Assembly: GCA_964610245.1 (NCBI GenBank)
Contig: CAZSVK010000002.1
Location: 1-37,196 of the forward strand
DNA from: an uncultured bacterium
GTDB taxonomy: Bacteria; Muiribacteriota; UBA6191; JACPRK01
Length of the DNA stretch: 37,196 bases
Direction of reading: 5' to 3'
The notes under the pieces are model-generated. The model was not told the DNA's origin, searched no databases, and worked only from the letters and a program-made list of their open reading frames with translations. A program made the translations under genes and the position numbers. Positions 3,026 through 37,170 of this stretch are shown here, piece after piece. Every line of letters begins with the position of its first letter. Position 1 is the first letter of the stretch.

Positions 3026-4735
3026 TCACCGACGAGAGCGCAACCGGTCGGCTCGTGCGAACCACGCGACATAGGGCGGCGCGAGATGTCGCGTCCGCTC
3101 GTCATCGACGAAGTGGCCGGGACCGTCGATCACCGGTCGCTCGCCTTCCAGCAGCAACACGATCCGTTCCTCCGGCAATAGCCACCATCGAAAGTCGACC
3201 CGGCCGAAGAGCGACGGCGTCATCCGGACGCCCTGCCGGTCGGAGCGGATCAGAAGACAGTAGCGCAGGTAGTCCAGGCCTCCGCTGGCGGAGGCATAGA
3301 CGCGCTCGATGCGATAGCCTGAACTCGCCAGCGTTTGCCAGTGAGCGCAAAGTTGCTCGTACACGAGCAGGTACCAGCGTGGCCGATGATGCGCGTCCAG
3401 CAGGAAGGGGCCGCGGGATGGGCCTGGCATGACCAGGCCTCCCAGATCGAAGAAGGGGCCGGTCCAGAAGTAGGCCATTCTCCCGGCCTGATCGCAGGCC
3501 AGCTCGCCGCGGGTGTCGACCGATCCGGAGAGATGGGTGGAGACTTCGCCATCGAACGAGTAGTTCGCGTAGTGGCCGTCCCCGAGCGAGAGGCGATCTG
3601 CGAAGCGCTGCAGCGATAGCTCGAATCCCGCGACCCCCTGCCGGGCCGAGACCAGGAGCGGATTGAACTCCAGAGTGCAGTGGTCGTCGGGTCCGGGCAG
3701 AACCTGCAGGTTCCCGGCGAGAACGAGAGCAAGCGTCGCACCGGCCACCACCCTCGTGCGGCCCGTCGTTGCCAACCGCAGATAGGCTTGCTGCGCCAGC
3801 AGCGCGATGAGACCGGCCACCGGCATGACGAAACGATAGAAGCAGATGTAGCCCGCATCCCCGCCGACCAACGCCACGAGCGTGAACTGGATCGTCACCA
3901 CGAGTGACATCCGGATCGCACTCCGCGAGCGCGCGATGCGCTCCAGACCTGCCAGTCCTATCAGAAACGGTAGGTTCCAGAAGAGCGCCGCCGCGACGTA
4001 CTGCAGCCCCGGCAGCAGACGCGCCAGTAGCTCTCCCCGCTGGTTCAGCAGCCGGCCATAGTAGATGTAGGGGACCACGCTTCCGAAGTAGCTCCATCGC
4101 ACGGCGAGGTACAGGAGCGTCAGGCTCAGATACGGCCACCACCAGTAGCTGAGCGAACGGGCGACGGTCCGGGCGCCCCCGGAGAGTACCCGGATGCATG
4201 AAAGCCCCAAGAAGAGAAACCAGCCATCGGCGCGGGCCAGGGTCAGGAGCCAGCAGACTCCGGCGGTCATCGCCAGACGGCCCGGGCTGGGGTGCGGCGA
4301 TTCGGCTACCCACAGGCAGGCCGCCAGGAGGGTCAGAAAGGAACAGAGCGGGGTTTCCAGGCCAGTCGTGATGGAGCGGGCGAAGGAGATGTTGGTTGCC
4401 AGCAGCAGGACAGGGAGCCACGCCCCGGCACCGGCACGGCAGGCCATCCAGCCGACCAGCGCGAGCTGCAGGACCCCGAACATGAAGGCCAAGGCGAGAG
4501 ATACCTGGGCCATGTCCGGCCACGCCCTGAAACCCGCTGCCAGCAGAAGCAGCCAGAGGGTGTTCGAGAACCCTTCCACGGGAGGCTCTTCGGCGTTGAA
4601 GCGTAGGCCGTGACCGGTGGCGAGGTTCCTGGCGAAGCGAAACCCGATGAAGGCGTCCTCCTCCAGCAGAGAGTCCGAGACTGCGATCTGCAGGCCCAGC
4701 AGTGCACAGCCCAGCAAGAGCGTCGCGACAAACAC
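3026..4735 (-). CDS. GT-C-fold-like integral membrane glycosyltransferase (ArnT / arabinofuranosyltransferase-like) with a soluble C-terminal domain
   Basis: Many hydrophobic helices. The first-loop motif LLEEDAFIGFRFARNLATGHGLRFNAEEPPVEGFSNTLWLLLLA resembles the D-A-x-I-x-F-R-x-A-x-N ... F-N ... E-G-x-S/T-N-x-L-W signature of GT-C membrane glycosyltransferases. The start is uncertain. The listed ATG 5020 adds ~95 R-rich, non-coding-looking residues. The first plausible in-frame start is GTG 4735. See the frame-break finding. Confidence 0.65.
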   Translation of the reverse strand: MFVATLLLGCALLGLQIAVSDSLLEEDAFIGFRFARNLATGHGLRFNAEEPPVEGFSNTLWLLLLAAGFRAWPDMAQVSLALAFMFGVLQLALVGWMACRAGAGAWLPVLLLATNISFARSITTGLETPLCSFLTLLAACLWVAESPHPSPGRLAMTAGVCWLLTLARADGWFLFLGLSCIRVLSGGARTVARSLSYWWWPYLSLTLLYLAVRWSYFGSVVPYIYYGRLLNQRGELLARLLPGLQYVAAALFWNLPFLIGLAGLERIARSRSAIRMSLVVTIQFTLVALVGGDAGYICFYRFVMPVAGLIALLAQQAYLRLATTGRTRVVAGATLALVLAGNLQVLPGPDDHCTLEFNPLLVSARQGVAGFELSLQRFADRLSLGDGHYANYSFDGEVSTHLSGSVDTRGELACDQAGRMAYFWTGPFFDLGGLVMPGPSRGPFLLDAHHRPRWYLLVYEQLCAHWQTLASSGYRIERVYASASGGLDYLRYCLLIRSDRQGVRMTPSLFGRVDFRWWLLPEERIVLLLEGERPVIDGPGHFVDDERTRHLAPPYVAWFARADRLRSRR

Positions 4736-5604: not shown

Positions 5605-8554
5605 CGCCGAACTGGCGTTCGAGGTAGCCGGGGCGCGCCCCTTGCCACCACGCGGCGAGCTTCTCCTGGGCGCGCCGGCACTCCTCGGGCGAGGCGGTGG
5701 GTGGCAGTCCGAGGTTCAGACCAGCTACGGTGGCCACTTGCAGCGCATAGCTTCGCCCCACGCCGGGGTCCGCGGAGTGCTCGAGCATCGCGTCGATCGC
5801 CTCGGGATACGGATTGGAACGGAGATTGACGAGCCACTCCCACTCCAGTCTCCACTTGCAGGCCGCCAGCCACGCCGAGAGGGTTTCGACCCGCCGACAG
5901 GTCATGGGATGGCCGGCCAGCTCAGGCGTTTGCAGCATCAAGTGATCCCGCTCCAGGAGGGACGATGGGTGCCGTTCCTGCGCCTTGCGCAGGTACGCCA
6001 GACCTGTCTCCGAGTCGCCTGCCCAGAGAAACGTGCGCCCGAGATCGCGCAACAGGCTGTTCTGCTCGGTGGCCCGGCCTTCCAGTTCAGCGGCATGAGC
6101 CAGCGCCTGCTGCGTGTTCTTGGCCTCGAGGAGGGCCCGGACCGCGAGATAGCCGCCCCTCACGCTGCGGTACCGTTCGTCACCGCGAGCGAAGGACGCG
6201 AGCCCCTCCGGGACCTTTCCCTGCAGGATCGACAGACGCCCGAGAACCTGGGTGGTGTCGGCCTTCCACTCGTCGATCTCGGCCGACTGCCGGACCAGCC
6301 TGGCCGCCTTGTCGAGCTGCCCGACGGTCATGTACTCGTTGGCAAGCGCGTTCAACTGAGCGGCAACGAGCAAATCATCTTCCCGTGGCGTGCGGCGCGC
6401 CAGCTCGGTCAACGTCTGTTCCGCCGCGGCGAAGTCGCGGCCCTCAATCTGCAGACGGCAGAGTTGCTGCACCGCGTGGCAATCGCTCGGGAATCGCTCG
6501 GCCGAACGGCGGTAGCACGCGGCCTCCGCCATCGGCGACAACCAGGCGCGATGGAGCTTGGCCTCGGCGACGGCCACCGTCTGCGAGTCGGGTAGCCGCT
6601 CGCGGGCCCGCGCCAGCTCGGGTTCGAGTTCGGCCCAGCTTGGCGCGGCGTGGCCTATCACGCTCAGCAGATCGGTCCAGACCGACGGGCTCCACGGATC
6701 CACATCCAGCTCGAAGCGCAGGGCGTCGAGGGCGCCATCCAGCCCGAGAAGAAGCGGTGGATGATTGGCGAACCGCTGGTAGACCAGCATATCCACGGCG
6801 TTACCGAGTTCCCAACCGGTGTGCAGGTCCGACACCTTGCGCGCACCGTGGCACAGATGGGCATCGAAGTCGGCCTGCTGCGCGAACGGATTGAGAGGCT
6901 CTTCCTGCAGCCAATCCTCGACCATCTTCACCCAGGCGGGCCCCGGAGACTGTCTGGCCTCGTTCTCCAGCGCGGACTTGAAGGCCGACGCCCGGGGCAG
7001 GCTCTTCTCGACCGCCTGCCGCATGGCATCCGCTTCCTGATCCACCCCCCAGCGCCACCGGGCGATGCAGTAGTACTCGGAGGCAGGCAAGGCCACAAGC
7101 TCCGAACGCAGCTCGAGTTCGTCGAGCTTCCGGGGACGCGCGACCGCCGCCTCGCAGGCCTGCGAACGAGGGAACTGGCCGTGCTCGCTCGCGAGGCGAC
7201 GTCCGGCCTCCGTCACCATGGCCGCCAGGGAGCCGTTCGGACCCGTCAGCATCGCCAGAAAGCTCGCCGCCCCCTGCGCGGCTCCCGCGGGCGGGCAGGC
7301 CGACGTGAGCCACTCGGTGCTGTACTGGCGTCCGAGTCCGACCCCGAGCCAGCGAGCGGTGCCCGCAACCAGGAAGGCCAGGGGCACTCCCCGCGCCCTG
7401 AGGTCGGCGACCATCGGTCCCATGGAAGGTGGGTCCATCGCCCGATCGACAGCCAACCAGTGTACGAACTCCGAGCCCGGCACTCTCGGGAGCTTGTCCG
7501 GGGCGCTGCGGCAGGCTTCGGCAAGCCAGCGGGCTCGAGGGAGGTCCCGGGCAAGCCACGGCTCCAGGAGCTTCATCGAAATGGAGGTGTGGCGCGCCGC
7601 GAGGCTGGCCAGGGCCCGGCTCAGGTCGACCGAGGACGACTCCACGTCGGTCAACCTCGCCAGCTCTCCCAGCGCCGCTCCTCGCACCAGCAGGCGTGGG
7701 CCTTGGGCCGCGTGGCCGCTGGTGAGAAGGTAGCCGAGGCGCGTGGACTCGGTGGCGGGCGTGGGCCACGCGCTGGGCAGCGCGGGGTTCCCGTCGGGCA
7801 GGGCTCCGTGCGAGAGCAGGTTCTCGAGAAGTGCGAGCGGCTCGGGCGGTACCAGCCGAAGCTCGTCGGCCCCGGGTGCCTGGACCGGACGCTTTGCGCC
7901 GAGTGCCAGAAGACCCTCGCGCCCCAGCTGCCACAGCGCGAGGGCAGCGCCGGCCGAGTCGCTCGCATCCCACTCGGCCGTGCCCAGAGTCCTCGAACCG
8001 GCTCGCGCGTCCGTCCCCTCGACCAGCAGCAAGCGCGCTCGGACCCGGTGGCCGTCCGCGGTTTCGACCGTGGGCAGCAGCCACCGGGAGGCCCCGAGCA
8101 GACCGCGCAATCTCGCCAGCTCACCCGGATCGGGCAGGCTGCCGTTCGCCGGCAGCGGTTGCGCCGCGGGCAGGGCCGCCTCGACGACCGCGGGGTCGAG
8201 GCAGCGGATCGCGGCCAACCGTGCCGCCCCCAGGGCAATCTGGTCCTGGAACACGCGCCACACGAAGCCGTCGAGCCCGACGCCGCGAGGATAGAGGGCC
8301 GGGTAGACGGCGGCCGCGTCCGTGCCGGAAGCCGGCTTCAACGGGCCGGGTTCGCCGCGCGCCTGCTGTGGCGGTCCGCGATGCTCTCGTGGGACCGACT
8401 CGCGCAGACCCCCGAGCGGGTCCACCGGGATGAGCCCCAGCCGGCTTCGGGCAATCTCGAGCAGCAGCGGGTGATACCAGAACACGACGCAGCCTGTGAC
8501 GAGCGCAATGAACAGCAAGCGTGACCAGGTCAGCTTCCGTGCCGGACTCCCCAT
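5585..8554 (-). CDS. N-terminally anchored 989-aa protein with C-terminal TPR-like helical repeats, function unknown
   Basis: ATG 8554 is preceded by GAGGGAGGG on the minus strand. TM helix WSRLLFIALVTGCVVFWY. The C-terminal third has TPR-like repeats (e.g. LANEYMTVGQLDKAARLVRQSAEID, GRTFLWAGDSETGLAYLRKAQERHP). The antisense ORF 6650..8524 is R-rich shadow. Confidence 0.7.
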   Translation of the reverse strand: MGSPARKLTWSRLLFIALVTGCVVFWYHPLLLEIARSRLGLIPVDPLGGLRESVPREHRGPPQQARGEPGPLKPASGTDAAAVYPALYPRGVGLDGFVWRVFQDQIALGAARLAAIRCLDPAVVEAALPAAQPLPANGSLPDPGELARLRGLLGASRWLLPTVETADGHRVRARLLLVEGTDARAGSRTLGTAEWDASDSAGAALALWQLGREGLLALGAKRPVQAPGADELRLVPPEPLALLENLLSHGALPDGNPALPSAWPTPATESTRLGYLLTSGHAAQGPRLLVRGAALGELARLTDVESSSVDLSRALASLAARHTSISMKLLEPWLARDLPRARWLAEACRSAPDKLPRVPGSEFVHWLAVDRAMDPPSMGPMVADLRARGVPLAFLVAGTARWLGVGLGRQYSTEWLTSACPPAGAAQGAASFLAMLTGPNGSLAAMVTEAGRRLASEHGQFPRSQACEAAVARPRKLDELELRSELVALPASEYYCIARWRWGVDQEADAMRQAVEKSLPRASAFKSALENEARQSPGPAWVKMVEDWLQEEPLNPFAQQADFDAHLCHGARKVSDLHTGWELGNAVDMLVYQRFANHPPLLLGLDGALDALRFELDVDPWSPSVWTDLLSVIGHAAPSWAELEPELARARERLPDSQTVAVAEAKLHRAWLSPMAEAACYRRSAERFPSDCHAVQQLCRLQIEGRDFAAAEQTLTELARRTPREDDLLVAAQLNALANEYMTVGQLDKAARLVRQSAEIDEWKADTTQVLGRLSILQGKVPEGLASFARGDERYRSVRGGYLAVRALLEAKNTQQALAHAAELEGRATEQNSLLRDLGRTFLWAGDSETGLAYLRKAQERHPSSLLERDHLMLQTPELAGHPMTCRRVETLSAWLAACKWRLEWEWLVNLRSNPYPEAIDAMLEHSADPGVGRSYALQVATVAGLNLGLPPTASPEECRRAQEKLAAWWQGARPGYLERQFGGVTKPK

Positions 8555-8675
8555 GACGGCCCTCCCTCACCAGCTTCCCACGACGGCAGTCGTCTTCCGA
8601 ATCCACCCCAACCTTACCCTACCGCCGGAGGCACGGCAAGGTGCCCTCTGGTGGTGGTGGAAACAGTGAGCCGCC

Positions 8676-10295
<1,620 letters not shown>

Positions 10296-15771: not shown

Positions 15772-16089
15772 GTGAAGCTCGAGGCGCCCTGCCTTCCCTG
15801 GAAGGGCATGCGGTTCCTGGTTCCGTCGACGCCCTACTTGCCCCCATCCCATGCGGTGGTCGACGGCGTGCGCCGCCACGGCGGAGCGCTCGCCGGCCCC
15901 GAGGGGCCGGTGGATGTCGTGGTACTGCCGGAGAGGGCCGACCTGGCGCGGGTTCGACACGCCGCCGCGGCGCGCTGGATCGGGCAAGGCGCGCTCATCA
16001 TGTGGGAAGCCGCCTTCCTCAGGACGCTGCGGGCGCGCGACCCCGGCCCTTGGCTGGCGACGTCGAGTGCGGTAGGTTCGAGGCGATGA
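15772..16089 (+). CDS. Hypothetical 105-aa protein, translationally coupled to mce
   Basis: GTG 15772 is preceded by GGAAGGAGG (AGGAGG 15761-15766, 5-nt spacer). Codons are GC3-rich. The stop overlaps the mce start as ATGA (16086-16089). No recognisable domain. Confidence 0.55.
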   Translation: MKLEAPCLPWKGMRFLVPSTPYLPPSHAVVDGVRRHGGALAGPEGPVDVVVLPERADLARVRHAAAARWIGQGALIMWEAAFLRTLRARDPGPWLATSSAVGSRR

Positions 16090-16520
16090 AACCCCTCCTG
16101 AGAAGACTCGACCACATCGGCATCGCGGTGCGCGACCTGGAACGTTCTCTCGGCTTCTACCGGGATGTGCTGGGCCTGCGTCACGAGCAGACCTGCGAGG
16201 AGACCGCGCGCCAGCTCACCGCCGCGGTCCTCGACGGCGGCAACACGCATCTCGAGTTGCTGCAATCGACCGCGCCCGGCTCGCTCATCGAGCGCTTCAT
16301 CGAGAAGCGCGGCGAGGGCATCCACCACCTCTGCTTCGAGGTCGAGGACATCCAGGCGGCGCTGGCGCAACTCGAGCAGGCCGGCATGCGCCTGGTAGAC
16401 CGGCAACCCCGCCCGGGCGTGGGCGGCGCGCTGGTGGCCTTCGTGCACCCGTCGTCGACCGGCGGCGTGCTCCTCGAACTCTCGGAGAAGAAAAAACAAC
16501 CTTCCACGGGCTCTGTCTGA
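16086..16520 (+). CDS. mce: Methylmalonyl-CoA epimerase (VOC / glyoxalase-fold)
   Basis: LDHIGIAVRDLERSLGFYRDVLGL ... HLELLQ ... IERFIEKRGEGIHHLCFEVEDIQAAL ... VAFVHPSSTGGVLLEL is the typical full-length MCE pattern. Start ATG 16086 (MKPLL). Confidence 0.85.
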   Translation: MKPLLRRLDHIGIAVRDLERSLGFYRDVLGLRHEQTCEETARQLTAAVLDGGNTHLELLQSTAPGSLIERFIEKRGEGIHHLCFEVEDIQAALAQLEQAGMRLVDRQPRPGVGGALVAFVHPSSTGGVLLELSEKKKQPSTGSV

Positions 16521-16594
16521 GGGGTGTGTGGTGGAAGGTTGTCGAATGAAGAGATAGTCCTGCCGCCACTCTTATCGGCCGGTTTGGAGCGAGA

Positions 16595-16828
16595 CTTGAT
16601 TGGAAAGGGAGGGCCCTCTCGGGGGCGCCGCCCCCGAACCCCTGCAAGGGGCGAAGTTCGCCCCTTGACCCCCCGATGACTGGAGTGAGTCTTGCCTGCG
16701 CTCGAAGCTCAGAGTCTCGGAGATTGCCGATCAAGCCTCGACTCCTCTTCTCATTGCCGGGGTCCAGGGGCCCGGCTCGGGTCCCTGGCAGGGGTTCCGG
16801 GGACAGCGTCCCCGGCAGAACGCTTCGT
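16595..16828 (-). repeat. GC-hairpin intergenic element, copy A (core inverted relative to copy B)
   Basis: The reverse complement aligns with 24001-24175. Hairpins at 16620-16636, 16645-16667, 16764-16788 and 16797-16815. It lies between the convergent stops of mce (16520) and the PrsW-family gene (16848). Confidence 0.85.
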
Positions 16829-16847
16829 TCGACTGCTTCACACCCTC

Positions 16848-17603
16848 TCAGGCTTCCGGACGCTCCCTCTTCCGCAGCAGCGAGCGCCGGGGCTTGAAGG
16901 GCGACTGGGCCAGGGCCTTCTGGATCTCCCCCAGGAACCGCTCTCTCAGAAGGTAGAGGAGCCCCATCAGCACGCAGAGCGCGAGCAGGCCGGCGGCGGG
17001 CTGGTAGAGCGCCACGAAGTCGTAGGCCCCGTGCAGCAGGATGGCGGCGCCGAGTCCCTTCACGTAGAGGCTGCGGGTGAGTCGCGCCTTGAACCGGACC
17101 AGGCCCAGGTAGTAGCCGACGATCGCCGAGCAGGCGACGTGCAGGAAGCTCGAGAGCACCATCCGCAGCACCAGCACGCCGGCGCCGAAGCCGAGCATGT
17201 AGCGGGCGTTCTCGAGCGTCGCGAAGCCGATCGCCGCGCTGACCATGTAGACGATGCCGTCCATCGGCTCGTTGAACTCGGGCGAGCGGAACGCCCCGAG
17301 GCGCACCACGAGAAACTTGAGCGCCTCCTCGACCGGCGCGATGATGAGGAACGAATAGACGCCCACCTCGGCCATCGTCCCCTGGCTGACGACGAAGCGG
17401 AAGCCCTCGGGCCCGGGCAAGAGCAGCCGGATGAGGGCGCCTTCCGCCGCGACGGCGACGATGGCGGCGCCCATCCCCGCGGCGAAGGTCTTCAGCATCA
17501 GGCCGACCGGCTCGGGTTCGTAGACGTCCTGGCGGCGGATCCACCACAGCCACAGGACCGCGGGCACAAGGCAGACCAGGAAATAGGTCAGAGCGTGCGT
17601 CAT
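16848..17603 (-). CDS. PrsW-family intramembrane metalloprotease
   Basis: Polytopic membrane protein with the family motifs APVEEALKF, GFATLENARY and LLHGAYDF. Start ATG 17603 (MTHALTYF). The listed ORF start 17981 adds a non-coding-looking extension that overlaps the divergent gene. Confidence 0.75.
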   Translation of the reverse strand: MTHALTYFLVCLVPAVLWLWWIRRQDVYEPEPVGLMLKTFAAGMGAAIVAVAAEGALIRLLLPGPEGFRFVVSQGTMAEVGVYSFLIIAPVEEALKFLVVRLGAFRSPEFNEPMDGIVYMVSAAIGFATLENARYMLGFGAGVLVLRMVLSSFLHVACSAIVGYYLGLVRFKARLTRSLYVKGLGAAILLHGAYDFVALYQPAAGLLALCVLMGLLYLLRERFLGEIQKALAQSPFKPRRSLLRKRERPEA

Positions 17604-17631
17604 TGATCCGCCGGGACGGGCCGCCCATAAT
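17603..17631 (+). promoter_or_regulatory. Sigma70-like promoter candidate TTGATC-N17-CATAAT for the 301-aa orphan
   Basis: TTGATC 17603-17608, 17-nt spacer, CATAAT 17626-17631. GGGAGG 17644-17649 follows, then ATG 17655. AT-rich hexamers are rare in this sequence. Confidence 0.4.
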
Positions 17632-17654
17632 GAGGGTGACCCTGGGAGGCACTC

Positions 17655-18560
17655 ATGTCGGAAGGCACCAAGCGATTTGCTCTGAAGATAGGGGAGATCT
17701 ACGAAATAGACAAGGGCCTGGCAGCCGTGGAGAGCGACCTGCGCCGCTCGCGCAAGGCTCGTTTCTCGAACCTGCGTCCCGATCTGACGGCCCGCTTCCT
17801 GAGTTGCATCGAGCCGTACCAGGGCGCGGTGGAGGTCTACGCCCACGAGCAAGCAGACCTGAAACCGCTCCAGGGAAGGCCGCTGGGCCAGGTCGGCACC
17901 TGCAAATCCCAGTGGTTCCAGCACTTCCTGGGCGAGAAGGTCAACATGGGCGAGGTCCTGATGCCGACCGCGCTCTATCACGTCCTCTGGACCGACGAGA
18001 AGGTCTACCGGGTCTTCGGAATCAACGACCCGGCCTACATCGAGTTCATCTGGAAGAAGAACTTCATGGTGAAGATGGAGGACGAACAGATCTTCACCAC
18101 GGTCTACGACCGGGAAGAGGGGCTGGCGATCATCCGGGAAAAGGTCCGCAAGACTTCGGTCTTCCGGCTGCTCGTGCTGCCGCCGGCGCTGGTGTGCGAC
18201 ATCGTGCAGGACGTGATGCGTGGCGACTACCGGATGATCCTGTCACGGCGCGATCCGCTGGTGAAGGCGCTGGCCACCGATCCGGACGTGCGCTACGGCA
18301 GCGACGCCAAGATCTACATGATTTACGGCGGCGAAGAGGCCAACGTCGGCAGCATCCGGCTCAACCACGAGCTGTTCTCGGTCATCTGGCGCGAGAGCAA
18401 GGTCTTCGCCGTGATGAAGTACGAGAACCTGATCTTCGCCAACTATTTCGGACGGGCATTCGACACCGCCTGGAAGTACTCGAAGAAGCAGAAGCTGCCG
18501 ACCGGCTCCACGTCGCTCGCGAAGTCCCAGACGCCGAAGAACCCGATCCGCTCGAGCTGA
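17655..18560 (+). CDS. Hypothetical 301-aa soluble protein, no recognisable domain
   Basis: ATG with a GGGAGG RBS. Strong C/G-ending codon preference like its neighbours, although the protein is K/F/Y/I/E-rich. No TM segment or signal peptide. Confidence 0.8.
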   Translation: MSEGTKRFALKIGEIYEIDKGLAAVESDLRRSRKARFSNLRPDLTARFLSCIEPYQGAVEVYAHEQADLKPLQGRPLGQVGTCKSQWFQHFLGEKVNMGEVLMPTALYHVLWTDEKVYRVFGINDPAYIEFIWKKNFMVKMEDEQIFTTVYDREEGLAIIREKVRKTSVFRLLVLPPALVCDIVQDVMRGDYRMILSRRDPLVKALATDPDVRYGSDAKIYMIYGGEEANVGSIRLNHELFSVIWRESKVFAVMKYENLIFANYFGRAFDTAWKYSKKQKLPTGSTSLAKSQTPKNPIRSS

Positions 18561-18610
18561 GTCGCACATTCAGCAAGAACCCTGTCGGGCGCTCCGCTCC
18601 CGAACCCTCG

Positions 18611-18658
18611 CCAGGGCTGGGCTCCGGCCCTGGCAGGGGTCCGGGGACAGCGTCCCCG
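18611..18658 (-). repeat. GC-hairpin element, minimal copy D (two-hairpin module only)
   Basis: CCAGGGCTGG-GCT-CCGGCCCTGG (18611-18633) + CAGGGGT + CCGGGGAC-AGC-GTCCCCG (18641-18658). The order and spacer match 16764-16815. It lies between convergent stops at 18560 and 18683. Confidence 0.75.
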
Positions 18659-18682
18659 AGAGGTTTCCCGGCTCCCCCACCC

Positions 18683-23891: not shown

Positions 23892-23954
23892 GCATCTCAC
23901 CTCCTGAGGGCGCTGCCCCCAGTCCCCCGCCTTGAGCCTGGCCCGCTTCGCGGC

Positions 23955-24222
23955 CAGTCTCGATTGTTGAAGCTGGGGCGTCCGCCCCAGTCCCCCCTGG
24001 CCCCTGGACCCGGCGATGAGAAGAGCCGTCGAGGCTTGAGCGGCAATCTCATGCACTTTGAGCTGCGAGCGTGGGCAAGAGTCCCTCCAGTCATCGGGGG
24101 GTCCAGGGGAGAACTTCTCCCCTGGTGGGGTCTGGGGCAAGGCCCCAGTAGGCCGTTCTCTCCAGTTCCAATCAGGCCTTTCGAGATCTGTCCATGCGTG
24201 AGGACAGCGTCCCCGACAGAAC
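23955..24222 (+). repeat. GC-hairpin intergenic element, copy B (reference orientation)
   Basis: Hairpins at 23973-23990, 24103-24125 and 24132-24148, with a partial GAGGAC-AGC-GTCCCC at 24200-24214. The core aligns with the inverted copy A and with copy C. It lies between divergent cbiM and the holB-like gene. Confidence 0.85.
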
Positions 24223-25570: not shown

Positions 25571-26721
25571 TGGCCGCCGACCGCCCGTTCCGCCTGATGA
25601 TCTGCGCCGGGGAGGCGTCGGGCGATCTGCACGCATCGCACCTGGTCGAGGCGCTGCGCCGCCGCTGTCCGGCGCTCGAGGCGTACGGATACGGAGGCGA
25701 GCGCATGGCCGCCGCGGGCGTGGAGCTGATCGCGCGTCTGACCGATTACCAGGCGGTGGGCTACATCGAGGTGCTCGGCTCGGTGCCGGCGGTGGCCTAT
25801 CACTACTGGAAGGCGATCCGGCTGCTGGCCCAGCGCCCGCCCGACGCGCTGGTCGTCATCGACTTCCCGACCTTCAACCTGCCGCTGGCCGAGCGCGCCA
25901 CGGCCGCGGGCATCCCGGTGCACTACTTCATCCCGCCGAAGGTCTGGGGATGGAAGAAGGAGCGGGCAGCCCGCATTGCCAGGGCGGCGGCGAAGATCTT
26001 CGCCATCTTTCCCTTCGAACCGCCCCACTTCGAGGTACACGGGGGCAAGGTCTTCTACTTCGGCCATCCGCTCATCGACTTCGTACGGCCCGCGATGGCG
26101 CGCGAGGCCTTCCTGGAACAGCATCACTGGGCTCCGGACCGGCCGGTGGTCGCGCTGCTGCCCGGCAGCCGCCGCCAGGAGATCGCCTTCATGCTCGAGC
26201 TGTACCTGGAGACCGCCCGCCGCCTCGCCGACGCGGGCCTGGCCACGCAGTTTGCGCTGCCGCGGGCGGTGACGGTGCCGCGGCCGTGGCTCGAGGAGTT
26301 GCTGGGCCGGCCGAGGTTCGCGAGCCTGGATGTGCACATCGTCGACGGAGGGATCCACGACGTCCTGAGCGCCTCGACGCTGGCGCTGGCCACCTGCGGC
26401 ACGGTGACGCTCGAAACGGCGATCTGCGGCTGCCCGATGGTCGTCAGCTACGATGCGGGGCTGTTGACGCGCTGGCTGTTCCGCGACCGGCACCGTTTCA
26501 CCCACTTCGGTCTGCCGAACATCGTGGCGGGCCGCGAGATCTGCCCCGAACGCATCGGAGAACAAGCGAATGCCGATACGCTCTTCCAGACGGCCAGGGA
26601 TTTGCTGCAAGACCCGGCGTCGCTCGCGCGCCAGCGACAGGAGCTGGCCGCGGTGACGGCCCAGCTCGGCTCGCCCGGCGTCTTCGACAAGATCGCGGCC
26701 GAGATCTTGCGCCAGGACTGA
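25570..26721 (+). CDS. lpxB: Lipid-A-disaccharide synthase (GT19)
   Basis: MICAGEASGDLHASHLVEAL, YFIPPKVWGWKKERA, FPFEPPHF, LLPGSRRQEI, ATCGTVTLETA. ATG 25570 overlaps the holB stop by 1 nt (TGATG). Confidence 0.85.
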   Translation: MAADRPFRLMICAGEASGDLHASHLVEALRRRCPALEAYGYGGERMAAAGVELIARLTDYQAVGYIEVLGSVPAVAYHYWKAIRLLAQRPPDALVVIDFPTFNLPLAERATAAGIPVHYFIPPKVWGWKKERAARIARAAAKIFAIFPFEPPHFEVHGGKVFYFGHPLIDFVRPAMAREAFLEQHHWAPDRPVVALLPGSRRQEIAFMLELYLETARRLADAGLATQFALPRAVTVPRPWLEELLGRPRFASLDVHIVDGGIHDVLSASTLALATCGTVTLETAICGCPMVVSYDAGLLTRWLFRDRHRFTHFGLPNIVAGREICPERIGEQANADTLFQTARDLLQDPASLARQRQELAAVTAQLGSPGVFDKIAAEILRQD

Positions 26722-28533: not shown

Positions 28534-29700
28534 GTGTCGAAGAGCGAACCCCACATTCTGCTGCTGGCCGGAGAGTTCTCGGGCAATCTCTACGGCGCCG
28601 CGCTCGTGCGAGAGCTGCGGCGGCTGGCGCCCTCTGCCCGGCTGACCGGCATCGGGGGCCGGCAGATGGCCGACGCGGGACTGCGGCTGATCCGCGACAG
28701 CTCGACCTGGGGCGGCATCGGCCTGGTCGAGTCGCTCAAGCGCTGTCACCTTTATCTCGTCTATCTCCAGCTCAAGGAGCTGATCCGCACGGACAGGCCC
28801 GACGTGATCGTGCTCATCGATTACCCGGGGTTCAACATGGCGGTGGCGCGGCTGGCGAAGTCGGCGGGCATCCCCACGCTCTACTATTTCCCGCCGGGGA
28901 AATTCACCGACACGGCCGAGTCGATCCGCGACGCCGCCCAGACCATCACGAAGGTCGCGGCGCCGTTCGAGCTGACCTACCGGCGCTATCGGGAGGCCGA
29001 GGCCGACGTGGAGTTCGTGGGCCACCCGATGTTCGACGTGCTCAAGTCCGACCTCGACCGGGAGCGCATCCGGGCCGACTTCGCCGTGAGTGCCCACCAG
29101 AAGGTCATCGGCCTGCTGCCCGGCAGCCGCCGCCAGGAGATCCGGATGCACACGCCAATCCTGGCCGAGTGCGCGCGGCAGCTCGCGCTGCTGCATCCCG
29201 AGGCGCGGTTCATCGTGCCGGTGGTCAACTGCAACATCCGGGAGTACGGCGACTTCGTGCAGGACACGGTGTCGCACCACCTGCGACGCGATGGCATCCC
29301 GGTGGACGTGACGGTCGATCGCACCTACGAGGTGATGGCCATCGCGGATCTGCTGCTGGTCTGTTCGGGGACCGCGACGCTCGAGGCGGCCTACTACGGC
29401 GCGCCGATGGTCATCGTCTACAAGACCACGGTGATGACCGAGATCCTGGCGCGGCTCTTCTATCCCGCGATGCCGCAGTACGTGGGCCTGCCGAACATCC
29501 TGGCCGAGCGCATGATCGTGCCGGAGTTCATCCAGCAGGATTTCGCTCCGGACAACATCCTGCGCGAGTGCCGGGACATCCTGGGCAGCCAGGAGCGGGT
29601 GACCCGGATGCGCAAGGATCTGCGGGCGGTCATCGACAACCTGGGTCCGCGAGGGGCCACCGAGAAGGTCGCCCAGCTGGCGCTCGAGCTGGTGAGCTGA
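28534..29700 (+). CDS. Divergent second LpxB-like GT19 glycosyltransferase
   Basis: LLLAGEFSGNLYGAALVREL, LIDYPGFNM, LLPGSRRQEI, VCSGTATLEAAYYGAPMV. GTG 28534 lies 6 nt after the msbA stop. The listed ATG 28474 would overlap msbA. Confidence 0.7.
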   Translation: MSKSEPHILLLAGEFSGNLYGAALVRELRRLAPSARLTGIGGRQMADAGLRLIRDSSTWGGIGLVESLKRCHLYLVYLQLKELIRTDRPDVIVLIDYPGFNMAVARLAKSAGIPTLYYFPPGKFTDTAESIRDAAQTITKVAAPFELTYRRYREAEADVEFVGHPMFDVLKSDLDRERIRADFAVSAHQKVIGLLPGSRRQEIRMHTPILAECARQLALLHPEARFIVPVVNCNIREYGDFVQDTVSHHLRRDGIPVDVTVDRTYEVMAIADLLLVCSGTATLEAAYYGAPMVIVYKTTVMTEILARLFYPAMPQYVGLPNILAERMIVPEFIQQDFAPDNILRECRDILGSQERVTRMRKDLRAVIDNLGPRGATEKVAQLALELVS

Positions 29701-29736
29701 ACGGGGGGGGCGGCACGAACGCATGAGGAAACGAAC

Positions 29737-30066
29737 ATGATGATGTCCGACATCCCCTTCGGAACGACCGACTGGGACAGCATCGAGCCCACGGAGCATC
29801 CCGGCGCTACCGGCAAGGCGTTCTGGCGTACCCGAACCTTCAACGGCATTCGAGTTCGGATGGTCGACTACACTCCCGGCTACCTCGCCGACCATTGGTG
29901 CCGGAAAGGTCACCTCCTGCTGGTGCTGGAGGGCGAGCTTCAGACCGAGCTGGCCGACGGGCGCACGGTCGTGCTGAAGCCTGGCCAGAGCTACCAGGTG
30001 GCAGACGATACTCTGGCGCATCGTTCGCGCACGGAGGGCGGCGCAAGGCTCTTCATCGTGGACTGA
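29737..30066 (+). CDS. DHCW-motif cupin-fold protein
   Basis: MSDIPFGTTDWDSIEPTEH ... AFWRTRTF ... RVRMVDYTPGYLADHWCRKGHLLLVLEGEL ... LFIVD matches the family end to end. GAGGA RBS sits before the ATGATGATG start. Confidence 0.85.
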   Translation: MMMSDIPFGTTDWDSIEPTEHPGATGKAFWRTRTFNGIRVRMVDYTPGYLADHWCRKGHLLLVLEGELQTELADGRTVVLKPGQSYQVADDTLAHRSRTEGGARLFIVD

Positions 30067-30277
30067 GGGGACGTGGCGCCGCTCGATCCGGCCGGCCGCT
30101 GACCGGTCGCAGCCGAGGCTACGCTACAGAGCGCATGCCGGAACTGCCCGACATCCTGGGGTGGCTCGCCCTCCGGGAGCGGCCTCGAAGGTCGGTCCGA
30201 CCGAGCCGGTGGTCATGCCCCACGATTGCCGGCGGAGCGCTTCGCTCCATCGGGTGCCCGAGCCGTGGGAACCGTTT

Positions 30278-31543
30278 CTACTGGCCCGGGCCCCACAGGA
30301 CCAGGGCGGAAGGCCGGATGGGGGAGCCTGCTCTCGGCTGCTCGAGAGAAGCCTCCAGCCGGAAGGTGCCGGCGCCGGTTACATACGAGAGCGGCGCGTC
30401 GGTGAACGGGTTGGGGGGCACCGGCTTCCCCGTCCAGCGCTCGAGTTCAGCCAGCTCGGAGGGCAGGCGGCCCTTCGCAGCCTGGAAACCCAGGAGTTGC
30501 AGCACGACGAGCAGTCCGCGCCGGTAGCACTCCGTTGTGGCGTGCTCCCGGACAAGGCTCGTAGGGTCAAGCGTCATGCTCTCCTGGATGCGCAGCGCCG
30601 CGACCTCGACCGGTGCCGCGAGTAAACTGGTCCAGGACGGCGCCGACGAGAACCTCAGCCGCCAGGTGTGACTGTACGACTCCAGCGCCGGCAACGAACG
30701 CGACGGTGGCAGGGCGAGAAGGCTCCGGATGCGGCGGCAATGCTCGGTCACGCGCCGGGAGACCAGGAGCTTCACCTCGTCGCGGAAGAGCCGGACGCCC
30801 CAGCGCACGATGCGATCCCGGCCGAGATACTCCCCTCGCGACGTCTGCTCCAGAAAGGCGTCGATCCGCGCTTCGATCTGGTCGGGCCGATCGCCGAGCA
30901 ACCGTTCGATGTCGAGGGGGGGCGGGGCGAGCCGGCCGAACTCTCGCAGCAGCATGTCGCGCTGGCCGGCCGAGAGCGGCTTGGCGGCCATGTGACGCAG
31001 CAGATGACGCAGGCTGGGCTGCTCGATCGCGCCCGCGAAGATGCATGGAAACACATTGGACTTGAAGTCGAAGGCGCCGTGCACGTCGCGAGCAAACGCC
31101 AGGCTCGCGAGGTTCAGTCTCACGTACGGAACCTCCTGCGACTGCCAGGCGAGGCCTCCGAGCAGCACGCGCAGCGCCTTGCTCGCATCGGAGATCGCGC
31201 AGTAGTCGGGGATGGCCGAGTCTTCGGTGAGACCCAATCGCTTGCGCGTGTCGGCCGGGGTGCGTGCCAGACCCGGCGGATACCAGGCCAGGAAGTCGTC
31301 CATGAACGGCCGCAGTCGCTCCAGCAGACCACGGTCCTCGCTCGAGAACGTGACCTCTTCGCCGGCGAGCGCGAGGAAGCGCTCGTTGTGGGCCAGTTCG
31401 GAGCGCGGCAGCCGCCCGAGAAACGGCAACGGGTAGTAGCGCGGTTCCTCGGCGGCAGACCAGCCGGCGGTCAGCGCTGTCAGCAACGCGCACGCGAGTA
31501 GCCAGGTGCGCCGAGTGGTGATTCCCTTGGCCAGGTCGAACAT
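30278..31543 (-). CDS. Hypothetical secreted protein (~421 aa)
   Basis: ATG 31543 gives MFDLAKGITTRRTWLLACALLTALTAGWSAAEE (signal-peptide-like). An alternative ATG 31579 lies 12 codons upstream. Codons are GC3-rich. No domain recognised. Confidence 0.65.
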   Translation of the reverse strand: MFDLAKGITTRRTWLLACALLTALTAGWSAAEEPRYYPLPFLGRLPRSELAHNERFLALAGEEVTFSSEDRGLLERLRPFMDDFLAWYPPGLARTPADTRKRLGLTEDSAIPDYCAISDASKALRVLLGGLAWQSQEVPYVRLNLASLAFARDVHGAFDFKSNVFPCIFAGAIEQPSLRHLLRHMAAKPLSAGQRDMLLREFGRLAPPPLDIERLLGDRPDQIEARIDAFLEQTSRGEYLGRDRIVRWGVRLFRDEVKLLVSRRVTEHCRRIRSLLALPPSRSLPALESYSHTWRLRFSSAPSWTSLLAAPVEVAALRIQESMTLDPTSLVREHATTECYRRGLLVVLQLLGFQAAKGRLPSELAELERWTGKPVPPNPFTDAPLSYVTGAGTFRLEASLEQPRAGSPIRPSALVLWGPGQ

Positions 31544-31717
31544 GCGATCCTCCGCGACTTCGATGAGGGCAGTGCTCATGCCAACGATAGCACCGGCCGC
31601 GGCAGACGTCAGCCGCTCCCCGATTTCGCGCTATCGGGGGATTGCCCCACAGATATCAAGTCACGGATTGTCAGGAAGCTCCTGAACGAAGGTCACCGCC
31701 TTCCGGCCGGCGAGCGC

Positions 31718-31969
31718 TCACGGGTCGTACCGGGGCGCCGCAAAGAGCTGCTCCGGCGTCAGCTCCAGCTCCGGGAACGGCCTCGAGCGCACGCGCTGGC
31801 CGCCGGCGGCCTCCGCGTGCAGCCGATAGCTGCCGGTCTCGAGGGTCAAGACGAGGATGGACCTGTCCGCGGGATTGACAATCCAGTACTCGGGGATCCC
31901 ATTTCGTTCGAAGAGGTCTCGCTTCTTGATGCAGTCCTTGCTCGCGGTCCCCTCGGAGAGGATCTCCAC
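31718..31969 (-). pseudogene. Truncated Uma2-family (DUF820) PD-(D/E)xK nuclease remnant, C-terminal half only
   Basis: PDLVVEILSEGTASKDCIKKRDLFERNGIPEYWIVNPADRSILV is the conserved Uma2 core. The ~100 N-terminal residues of the family are absent. The homology begins ~10 codons after the stop of the upstream giant ORF, in the same frame. Confidence 0.6.
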
Positions 31970-32002
31970 GACGAGGTCGGGCGGCCCCTCCGCCGAGCTG
32001 GC

Positions 32003-35000
32003 TCAGTTGCCCGTGAACTCCTGGAAGTCGGCCTCGGTGGCGCCCGATTGTTCCCACGTCCGGATCTCGACGGTCTGGGGCAGCAGCGGCGGAGGCCGGA
32101 CGGCCAGCGTTGCGTCGTAGATTCGCCGGCGCATCGGCGGCCAGTAGTGGCCGACCTTCAACTGAGGCGGATGGTTGGCCACCTGGGCCATCCGGATCTC
32201 GCTGCCCACGAACCGCTGGATCATCGGCGTCAGGATGTTCTGCAGCGAGCCGGCTTTCAGCTCTTCCAGGCCCCGGATCGTCGTCAGGTAGTGCACGCGG
32301 GCAGACCGGGCATTACCCAGGTAGTCGAAATGCCGGTTGCCGTTCTTGGGATCGTCCGAAGAGGAGGGGTCGTCGTTGACCTTCGCACCGACGAACACCA
32401 TCGAGACCAGATCCATCTGCGGCATGAAAAGCTCGTCGTCCATCATCGTGGTCACGGTGCCTTCCTGATCGGAGTACTTGCCGGCGGGAGGATGGCCCGA
32501 GAGCGTGGCGGCCTTCTCGTCGTAGACCAGGTTGTACAGCCGCTGGGGAGCGGTGAAGGAGCCAAGCTGGGGCGGGGTCAGGTCCTTCAAGTCGGGATCC
32601 GGGGCCGGCGGACGGAAGGCGGCGTACTGAGGCTCGTCGGCCGCCAGCCGCTGGATGACGACGTCGGCGACGCCGGTGGTTGAGGGCGTGCCATCCAGCT
32701 CTTCGCGCGTGAGGTCGCCGTCGGCCAGGGCAGCCGAGAAGGAGCCGCGGATGACGTCGTACGACGCCGTGGTCACCCAGAGGTTATCTCCGGCGTTACT
32801 GCTTCCGCCCTGGCCGAAGTAGCTCTGCAGTGCCGGCACCAGCTCCGAGGCACCGTTGGCGCCGGGCTGGAGGATGTCGGTCGAGGGGATGGGGGAACAG
32901 GTCGGGACGGGCGAAGCGTCGGGGTAGCGCACCCACTCGTGGGCCTTGGTCTCGTCGCCCAGGATCCGGGTCAGCATCTCCAGCTTGACGAGCCCCTTCA
33001 GCTCGTTGCCCAGGCAGCGCGTGGGGTGGCGCTGGTCGAACCAGACGCGGCCCATCGAGATCAGCGCCATCGCGACCCGCTCCCGCTCGGCCGGCGCGAC
33101 CAGGTCGCCGGTCGTGCCGTCCAGGTACTTCTCGACGTCCTCCGTGCGGTACTGGTAATAGGGCGTGCCGTCGATCGCGGAACCGTCGGGCATCTGGTAC
33201 TTCGGCTTGTAGTTCTTGCGGTGGGCAGGGTGGCAGTTGAGGTCGCCGCTGACGAAGATGTCGGCCTCGCAGTAGATCGTGACGTCGCGATCTGGGTTCC
33301 CCCAGATCGTCAGCGGCTTGGACGAGTAGATCAATCCATTGAAGTCGGCGGGGTAGTCTCGCCCGAGGGCGTTCGCGTCATCCGGCGGCGTCGGGCCGCC
33401 TTCGTATCCGCCCCGGCCGAAGTCCAGCTCGATCACGTCGTCCGGCAGTTCGCCCGGATAGTCGTGCATGTACTCCTTGCGGGTGGGCAGACCGCTGACG
33501 TCGACGCCGCCCGCGGCGGCCTGCTTGCGATAGAACTGCGGTTCCAGCCGCGGCAGCGAGAGGGCACCTCCGTGCTGGCCGTCGAGAACGTTTCCGCTCG
33601 CGGTCTCCAGGCCCGACGGTCCGGCAGAATCGTTTTCGGGCCCGAGTTCGACCGGCCTGCCCTGCAGGGTTTTCGGTTTCTGGAACGTGACCTGATAGGA
33701 ATCGGCGAACATCAGCGGCCCGCCCGAGCGCAGGCAGTCGAGGTTCAGGAAGCGCTGGATGGTGCCGTTCGGAGAGACGTTGCCCAGCCGCACCGTCTGA
33801 CCTCCGTAGAGGCGTCCGTCGGTGAAAACGTTGGAGTGATGCGAGTCGTTCGGCGAGCCCATCCCGAGCACGACCTTCTCGCCGTCGTAGATCACGTATT
33901 CGGTGAAGTTCGAGACCTCGGCGATGACCGAGATCCGGGTGTGGCGATCGAGCCTCTTGCCCGGGTCTTTCTTCTTGCCGAGGCTCTCGATCCGGACGAA
34001 CCGGGTGGCTTCGTCGACGGAGGGCGTCGCGGGGTCGTCGTCGATCGGCACGCGCCCGACCCGGACGGCGAACTCGGCGCCGAAGACCCCGTGGCCCACC
34101 CGGCCCGTGTAGCTCCCCTTGGTCGTGTTGGCGACGTCGATCTCGCTGTCTCCAGCCAGACGGACGGGCCTGGAGAGCGCTTCTTTCCACACGAAGTCGC
34201 CGGCGGCGTCCAGCTCGAGTTCGTGGGTGAGCCAGCCCTGGCTGTTGCGCATCTCGAGCAGCGTGCAGTTCAGACCGGCCTCTGCCGCGGTGAGCGCCGA
34301 GAAACTGTTGAGGACCGCGCCGGTCGCGCGCACGCGCGAACTCGAGTAGGTGGAGAAAGCCAGGACCAGCGTCGCCAGCAGGAAGATGATGGCGACGAGA
34401 ATCGGGAGGGCCAGGCCCCGCCGCTGACGAGAACGGGGCGGCAGGAGGCCGCGTCCCCAGGGCCAGGCCATCGCGCCGAGCGTCCACAGCAGGGTGAGCA
34501 GGCTCAGTACGGCGCCCACCCGGAAAGGCCAGGGCTCGTAGGTCATCTGCAGCCGGTGCTCCCCGGCGGCGACCTCGACCCCGCGAAAGAGGCCGTCGAC
34601 CTGGTGGATCGGCCGCTCGTGGCCGTCGACCCGGGCCTTCCATCCCGGGTACCAGCTGTCCAGCAGCACCAGCAGGCCGCGGCCTGCCAGCTCGAACTCG
34701 ATCGCCACGCGGTGCCGGCCGTACTCGGTCACCTCGCAACGCCGGACGTTCGCGGGCTTCAGCTCGCCGGGCGCCGAATCAGGCGCAGGCTCGTAGCGCA
34801 CCTCGTCGGGGATGGCCAGCAAGGTGGCGCTGGTGGGCAGTTCGCCGGGAGCGGAGGGCACGGCGCGGCCCGCGATGAAGGCCCGCGGCGTCACGCGATC
34901 CAGCCGGCGCACGACCACCGGGCCGACGCGGTCGATGACGGTGCCGCCGCCGTACTCCTCGTCGCGCGTCTCGGACCGCAGGACGAACTCGGCGCCGATC

Positions 35001-36949: not shown

Positions 36950-36991
36950 TGGCCTTCAATGACCGGGAGCGTGTCACAGGAAGGGCCCCAC

Positions 36992-37170
36992 CTGGGGGCC
37001 CTGCCCCCAGCCCCCCGCCAGGGTGGGAGCCCCACCCTGGACCCGGCGATGGCAGCAAGCCTCGGCCATGCTCCTCGAGGGCTGCCGAGCAAGACCAACT
37101 CACGCCAGCCATTGCCGGGTGCAGGGGAGTGCTACTCCCCTGCTGGGGTTCGGGGCAAAGCCCCGCGGGG
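36992..37170 (+). repeat. GC-hairpin intergenic element, copy C (same orientation as B, more diverged core)
   Basis: Hairpins at 36992-37010, 37018-37040, 37121-37143 and 37151-37165. Shared block CCCTGGACCCGGCGATG (37034-37050) as in copy B. It may continue to or past the window end. Confidence 0.75.

Follow-up and report, generated by a model that had tools for sequence, protein, structure and literature searches.

What kind of element is an intergenic cluster of GC-rich hairpins whose inverted near-duplicate occurs elsewhere on the same contig? The question is raised by a locus in the window (the whole stretch of bacterial DNA analyzed here, a complete contig of 37,196 nucleotides). An earlier note on this DNA had offered three candidates, namely a structured small RNA or UTR, a REP/MITE-like repeat, and a protein-bound cruciform, and had taken conservation of structure over sequence as an argument for a functional folded RNA or DNA element. 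Of these proposals, the REP/MITE-like repeat gains support, and the step from conserved structure to a functional folded RNA gains none. Judging from sequence comparisons, the two elements, here termed A and B, quite probably belong to a lineage-specific family of noncoding palindromic repeats that resemble MITEs, REPINs, and ERIC elements and that are miniature and non-autonomous. The elements occur in several copies, in either orientation and in every gene context, they differ in presence between strains, and they exhibit inversion, deletion, and nesting; these properties argue for repeat DNA and not for a conserved RNA gene.

A blastn comparison within the window bore out the inverted match that had been read by eye: the reverse complement of 16597-16775 aligns with 23996-24174 at 79.3% identity over 184 columns (E 4e-38). 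A repeat search of the window, which has a GC content of 69% and for which 243 inverted pairs were listed, also recovered inverted arms of 138 nt at 16624-16761 and 24009-24146 that are 80% complementary. All four hairpins of the earlier note (16620-16636, 16645-16667, 24103-24125, and 24132-24148) can be read in the sequence at those positions, and the CAAGGGGCGAA / CCAGGGGAGAA hairpin indeed carries two substitutions that affect both arms, from A-T to C-G at stem position 2 and from C-G to A-T at position 8. Annotation of the neighboring genes agrees with the statement that both elements lie outside genes. Element A has on one side a glyoxalase-family gene on the plus strand (16002-16520) and on the other a PrsW-family protease gene on the minus strand (16848-17981), with both stop codons facing it. 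Element B separates holB from a minus-strand CbiM/PDGLE gene whose start is at 23895.

As delimited by covariance model R1, element A is full length and occupies 16616-16819 (minus strand in the orientation of the model), with a score of 207.8 bits, an nhmmer E value of 3.7e-53, and a fold z-score of -4.5. On the plus strand, its parts follow each other as an X hairpin (16620-16636), a spacer, a Y hairpin (16645-16667), the core (16668-16763), a second Y hairpin (16764-16788), a spacer, and a second X hairpin (16797-16815). Element B, identified by its sequence and fold as well as by R1 (160.4 bits) and nhmmer (E 2.6e-48), occupies 23969-24152 on the plus strand and consists of an X hairpin (23973-23990), a degenerate left Y hairpin, the core (24010-24102), a Y hairpin (24103-24125), and an X hairpin (24132-24148). 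Both elements have a common tail of about 20 nt beyond one end of the unit (TTCCAATCA). Adjoining A, the tail is TGATTGGAAAGGGAGGGCC (16597-16615, minus strand), which resembles the tail after B and lies next to a flank that is 98.7% identical in contig L004 of a relative; past the end of B, the shared tail reaches to approximately position 24175.

Each full copy forms an imperfect palindrome, about 200 nt long (183-204 nt by the limits of R1) and 59-68% identical to its own reverse complement. The unit is built from two inverted double-hairpin modules, in which X hairpins (15-19 nt) and Y hairpins (23-25 nt) form inverted pairs, around a core of about 95 nt. This core is bounded by ACCCGGCRATG and CATCGSSGGGT, which are themselves inverted repeats with about 70 nt between them. 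Within a module, the order is Y (CCAGGGG-loop-CCCCTGG), a spacer (nGGGGTn), and X (CnGGGG-loop-CCCCnG). Read along the unit, the left arm consists of X (CnGGGG-loop-CCCCnG), the spacer rACCCCyG, Y (CCAGGG..-AGC-..CCCTGG), and ACCCGGCRATG, and the right arm consists of CATCGSSGGGT, Y (CCAGGGGnGA-ACT-TCnCCCCTGG), the spacer yrGGGGTy, and a second X hairpin. Predicted single-strand folds of the copies are multibranched, with z-scores of -2.7, -4.5, and -5.8 relative to shuffled sequences.

Further copies are present in the window, and blastn, nhmmer, and R1 agree on them: element C, an 82-nt derivative, and solo hairpin remnants. Element C is a diverged full copy at 36988-37170 on the plus strand, supported by its sequence, an R1 score of 144.8 bits, and a fold z-score of -5.8. 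It contains X hairpins at 36992-37010 and 37151-37165, Y hairpins at 37018-37040 and 37121-37143, and a perfect central stem of 13 bp, in which 37041-37053 pairs with 37108-37120. The derivative (18582-18663, minus strand; 65.2 bits with R1 and confirmed by alignment) is an internally deleted copy that retains an X hairpin, one hybrid Y hairpin, and an X hairpin; approximately 113 nt, comprising half of each Y hairpin and the core, are missing between the direct repeats CCAGGG and CCAGAG. Two solo X-type hairpins remain near B. One, CTGAGGGCGCTGCCCCCAG (23903-23921, plus strand), is about 50 nt upstream of B and was recognized because 36998-37029 of element C matches 23900-23931 at 87.5% (blastn). 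The other (24199-24222, minus strand), which has the conserved outer tail (reverse complement GTTCTGTCGGGGACGCTGTCCTCAC), is about 50 nt downstream of B and was recognized from a 95% blastn match between 16801-16821 and 24202-24222. Together, the two remnants suggest that B lies within an older, decayed element.

A gapped core pattern (CCTGGACC-CGGCRATG ... GGGTNNAGGGG) matches the window three times, in A, B, and C, and has 0 matches in 100 shuffled sequences. The repeat occupies at least four loci in the 37 kb, and more in relatives. Absence of further copies, named in the earlier note as part of a refutation, is not what the window shows. Pairwise identities among the copies are 65-82%, and since no pair exceeds approximately 82%, the copies give no direct sign of recent bursts.

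The proposal that compensatory changes preserve pairing was borne out in a larger set of copies. MAFFT alignments misplaced the X hairpins, and pairs were therefore counted in hand-aligned hairpins and in an alignment fitted to the model, which holds both strands of copies. In a hand alignment of 11 distinct Y hairpins, pairing extends to 109 of 110 cells, and seven of the ten stem positions exhibit at least two types of base pair; when partners were shuffled, 0 of 2000 trials reached 109 paired cells (mean 86). For the four hairpins at nine loci (model-fitted alignment, one strand each), 251 of 261 cells are paired, compared with a permutation mean of 210 and maximum of 223, and 34 cells exhibit changes on both sides, compared with a mean of 7.7 and a maximum of 15; these counts come from a small sample of related copies in an alignment that was fitted to the structure. 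As a control, sliding the partner by one to three columns left at most 131 of 235 cells paired. The long-range helices are more weakly paired than the four local hairpins: pairing in the central stem, which has a conserved GG/GG internal loop in most copies, amounts to 67 of 100 cells (67%), and that in the P1 helix to 46 of 58 (79%). In the nine-locus alignment, G-T and A-C mismatches are about equally common, so neither strand is marked as that of a folded RNA. Compensatory stem changes alone are no proof of RNA function.

Comparison with related genomes reveals how individual sites have changed. Syntenic contigs from three relatives were found via protein-cluster members and holB homologues; among named relatives, the one closest in holB is a Candidatus Riflebacteria MAG (55% identity). 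Nucleotide identity to the window is approximately 92-95% for contigs L004, L005, and L008, 86-93% for L006, L007, L009, L010, and L011, and 91-94% for L012 and L013.

At site A, the flanks are 94-99% identical between the window and L004 (98.7% for the flank that extends as far as GACTTGA), but the element itself matches at 82% only as the reverse complement and at 63% in the syntenic orientation. In L009, site A has the orientation found in the window, which makes the window orientation the ancestral one. The inverted copy of L004 is 82.0% identical to A and a non-orthologous copy is 82.4% identical, so the comparison does not establish a simple inversion; replacement or gene conversion is possible instead. 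The L009 copy has lost its far arm by deletion between two TCTCA repeats and has gained a 39-nt insertion in the loop of a Y hairpin. Upstream of this copy (L009 8903-9194, compared with window 16521-16847), a peptidase M14 gene takes the place of the glyoxalase gene, and the synteny breakpoint coincides with the edge of the X hairpin. Element A is old, vertically inherited, and common to three lineages, so that much of the variation is decay in place and not transposition. As a separate observation, the 79 noncoding bases that lead from the glyoxalase stop codon to element A (16521-16599) are 98.7% identical to L004, compared with 94-95% for the neighboring coding sequences; they have no Rfam match and could, from their conservation, represent a conserved 3' element.

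Other sites differ in other ways. Around position 18600, L004 carries a full element of 200 nt (3114-3313), which is collapsed in the window. At site B, the first copy in L004 is joined by part of a second one, namely its left half and core, in a nested or rearranged arrangement, and the corresponding spacer of L006 and L007 is unalignable and has no element detectable by nhmmer or the covariance model. At site C, the window is identical to L008 up to ATGACCGGG, that is, through codon 3 of a lipid-A-acyltransferase/Rce1-like gene, and just past this codon the element begins. The site is empty in L008 (94% nucleotide identity) and L006, where the coding sequence runs on. Site C offers the one clean comparison of a filled with an empty site, although its right junction lies beyond the end of the contig, which is 26 nt past the element and possibly chimeric; the other sites show no target-site duplication. 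The differences in presence could be deletions rather than insertions.

The same lipid-A-acyltransferase/Rce1-like gene contains a copy of its own in L008. The linker that joins the acyltransferase and Rce1-like domains of this gene (8069-9934, minus strand) contains, in frame, about three quarters of an element (L008 8740-8886). Both hairpins of this copy are still perfect, and its predicted translation is GAPLPNPREGRSSPLDPPVTGESLAHARGLESSEVP, including ...GRSSPLDPPVTGESLAHARGLESSEVP...; in the L006 orthologue, the linker has the same length but is unrelated. Gene contexts are accordingly varied: A and the deleted copy are between convergent genes, B is between divergent genes, C is at the 5' end of a gene, and one copy is intragenic. 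The ends of contigs L005, L010, and L011 fall within elements, and that of the window falls just after C, so that four contigs end in or next to elements, as expected if assemblies break at repeats.

On the repeat-family explanation, the most likely mechanism is that the elements would spread in trans, through an enzyme encoded elsewhere that recognizes the terminal hairpins on single-stranded DNA. The leading candidate for this enzyme would be an HUH/Y1 transposase of the RAYT or IS200/IS605 type. We suggest this specific step tentatively and regard it as rather doubtful; it is put forward because such enzymes are a known way for hairpin shape, and not sequence, to come under selection in mobile DNA. 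Selection on hairpin recognition in propagating lineages, with palindrome-templated correction as an aid, would preserve pairing in the stems as their sequence drifts, and correction of this kind might keep them paired even without selection. Nested palindromes would also be fragile, which could give rise to slippage deletions at the bases of stems, to inversion, and to a breakpoint at the edge of a hairpin. Effects on neighboring genes, such as termination or stabilization of mRNAs, would be secondary.

Such effects might instead be the reason that the hairpins are kept, whatever their origin. The elements would then serve the host in the manner of REP/BIME sequences, with hairpins kept as bidirectional terminators, as stabilizers of mRNA 3' ends, or as binding sites for gyrase, IHF, or other nucleoid proteins, and roles of this kind are among those proposed for REPs (Di Nocera et al. 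2013, PMC3733652). The positions of A and the deleted copy, directly past the stop codons of convergent genes, are consistent with this idea, as is the perfection of hairpins even in old or truncated copies (the intragenic copy of L008 and the copy of L009). However, B and C are at the 5' ends of genes, relatives are without the element at sites B and C, and consensus scans of the elements detected neither sigma-70 promoters nor intrinsic terminators, with no T-tract after the hairpins. We consider a host-serving function unlikely as an explanation, and it would in any case add to membership in a repeat family rather than replace it.

The elements could also be paralogous structured RNAs (small RNAs or UTR elements), in which the four hairpins and the central stem constitute a selected RNA fold. 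Strong covariation in four hairpins and predicted folds that are more stable than those of shuffled sequences are properties expected of such RNAs. Moreover, B is just upstream of holB and in the same orientation, and A is just downstream of the PrsW-family gene and on its strand. REP-like repeats, too, are described as often transcribed and able to act as RNA (Di Nocera et al. 2013, PMC3733652). Against these points, the element is symmetric on both strands, with the balanced G-T and A-C mismatches noted earlier, the central stem and P1 are only 67% and 79% paired, and neither promoter nor terminator consensus was detected. An Rfam scan of the whole window yielded 0 matches at gathering thresholds, and permissive scans around A and B yielded only chance-level matches (E above 5), in agreement with the earlier note, which had recognized no named RNA family. 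At the orthologous site A, a close relative has the opposite orientation; one copy lacks the core, an arm has disappeared in another lineage, and copies occur in convergent, divergent, 5'-proximal, and intragenic contexts. We therefore regard a conserved RNA as quite improbable.

Two narrower assignments were tried and rejected. A coding function was discarded because a seven-codon mini-ORF (MRRxVEA*) occurs only in A and B, stops interrupt the otherwise open frames of other copies, and no reading frame is open in all copies. Integron attC sites consist of R''/R' core sites (RYYYAAC ... GTTRRRY) that bound an imperfect palindrome and are located beside cassettes. The outer ends of the elements read GTTCTG[C/T]CGGGG, compared with GTTRRRY, and their neighbors are housekeeping genes, so an attC assignment was likewise dropped.

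The family is narrow. Scans of 185,579 species-representative genomes, JGI metagenome contigs, and IMG/VR with a strict core pattern yielded no further member, and the evidence comes from one lineage. Two pattern matches in metagenome contigs were rejected as chance since they are inside one family of protein-coding genes and have no palindromes. Element A had no blastn match among the plasmids of PLSDB, and a search with a concatenated pseudo-protein translated from the copies returned nothing. A profile built from three sequences and compared with 1.84 billion representatives gave two matches to unrelated repeat proteins, which were also rejected as chance.

One genome match deserves separate mention. 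A GC-rich insert in the dnaA-dnaN spacer of the Firmicute Acutalibacter sp. 1XD8-33 (NZ_RAZF01000021.1, L001 4543-4731) carries GTGGAGCTCTGCTCCAC-ACCTCG-CCAGGGGTTAGGCCACCCCTGG-ACCCGGCAATG, that is, a hairpin, a spacer, a hairpin, and a motif in the same order as in the left arm of the window elements. The insert scores 32 bits with R1 (E about 1e-5), was picked by pattern from 596 Gb, and is not a palindrome overall; an Rfam scan of L001 yielded nothing. Its likeness to the window elements may reflect either descent or chance. Under a more ambitious reading, the X-Y module together with ACCCGGCRATG would be the recognition site of an undescribed system for hairpin-directed DNA mobilization or rearrangement, in this lineage and perhaps beyond it. 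We consider this a long shot, kept in view because of the order X, spacer, Y, and ACCCGGCAATG in Acutalibacter, the inverted element at an orthologous site, and the copy in a protein linker.

The reversed orientation at site A also brings to mind an inverton, in which recombination between the inverted arms would flip the core and so regulate neighboring genes; the opposite orientations in two strains whose flanks are 94-99% identical are as such a switch would produce. Yet the flipped segment takes in the hairpin arms themselves, and the inverted copy, at 82% identity, is no closer than a non-orthologous copy. Orientation differs at one site only, and the comparison is between two assemblies rather than within one population. 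Neither an invertase nor a recombinase gene is present near A in the window or in the related loci, and the core has no promoter consensus, all of which makes an inverton very improbable. Finally, although short GC hairpins are common in a genome with 69% GC, chance palindromes or ordinary terminator hairpins have a negligible probability, given a similarity of 79% over 184 nt, a core pattern with zero expectation in shuffled sequences, and an architecture that recurs at at least four loci and in relatives; the earlier note, too, had argued against chance GC palindromes.

If the elements are repeats of the proposed kind, they matter for work on this lineage in several ways. Such repeats break metagenome assemblies, as in the four contigs noted above, and can pass for small-RNA genes. 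They mark places of genome rearrangement, and their copies can be used as strain-level markers, so recognition of the family and availability of model R1 would aid in finishing and annotating the genomes of this uncultivated lineage. The family is also a compact example of how nested palindromes decay, with slippage deletion at hairpin bases, inversion, nesting, a synteny breakpoint, and coding capture all represented.

Several observations concern other parts of the window. Exactly at the site of the deleted copy (18582-18663), L009 has a PIN-domain toxin gene with a small upstream ORF (L009 10920-12765). The repeat search also detected two LpxB-family paralogues (25839-26184 and 28797-29142), 2958 nt apart, with stretches of 71-85% identity and an MsbA-like ABC transporter gene between them. 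Right of approximately 29.7 kb, gene order differs between the window (29564-32003) and L008 (14990-21168) despite 94% identity, and L004 and L008, which come from the same sample, both end at window position 29.6-29.7 kb. A short ORF at 31718-31969 (minus strand) matches only the C-terminal part of the Uma2 family of putative restriction endonucleases and, from this partial match, is probably a gene fragment.

Among known repeats, Rickettsia palindromic elements (RPEs) are resembled by the L008 copy at 8740-8886, which forms an in-frame part of an interdomain linker in a real gene. This is, however, a single intragenic case, most copies in the present family are intergenic, and there is no sequence relation. 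Intragenic copies are reported for REPs as well (Di Nocera et al. 2013, PMC3733652).

With MITEs, the present elements have in common that they are small (under about 500 bp), noncoding, and present in several copies, with inverted-repeat ends, strain polymorphism, and nesting. Correia elements and Nezha are examples of MITEs. The terminal repeats here are double hairpins of about 50 nt rather than simple terminal inverted repeats, and neither the window nor the fetched loci revealed a parent insertion sequence whose ends match or a gene for a transposase. ERIC (or IRU) elements are enterobacterial imperfect palindromes of about 127 bp for which no transposase is known. They resemble the present family in being long intergenic imperfect palindromes with a conserved center, with size variants that arise from internal deletion or insertion, and with a presence that varies between related genomes. 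The unit described here has no sequence similarity to ERIC elements; it is longer, contains nested local hairpins, and belongs to a different lineage, one that is uncultivated and high in GC.

The closest parallels in architecture are with REP sequences and their doublets. In REP/REPIN-RAYT systems, a single-copy gene for a RAYT (a Y1 HUH transposase) is flanked by repeats; neither the 37-kb window nor the related loci (roughly 80 kb) contain a RAYT gene. REPINs and BIMEs are described as REP doublets that RAYT transposases mobilize and in which hairpins of the REP type, in inverted arrangement, fold together into one larger structure (Bertels & Rainey 2011, PMC3116915; Di Nocera et al. 2013, PMC3733652). 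Likewise, the present elements are short GC-rich imperfect palindromes, mostly intergenic, that form inverted pairs able to fold into a larger hairpin, with singlets, decayed copies, occasional intragenic copies, and compensatory changes in stems. The X and Y hairpins form inverted doublets as REPs do (imperfect palindromes of 20-40 nt). However, an arm here comprises two hairpins (X and Y) instead of a single REP, what separates the arms is a conserved core of about 95 nt and no short spacer, and the copies are only 65-82% identical, with no dominant master sequence seen. A GTAG or CGTC tag, left unpaired, is also described for one end of REP palindromes (Di Nocera et al. 2013, PMC3733652), whereas the tail after X is G-A-[G/C]-A-G-[G/A]. 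Individual tails read GAGAGG, GACAGA, or GGCAGAAC; AGTAGG follows X in B only, and CGTC occurs only inside the loop or stem of one X variant. A new class of system would be at hand only if a new mobilizing enzyme were found, and the elements are best read as a new family of a known kind of palindromic repeat.
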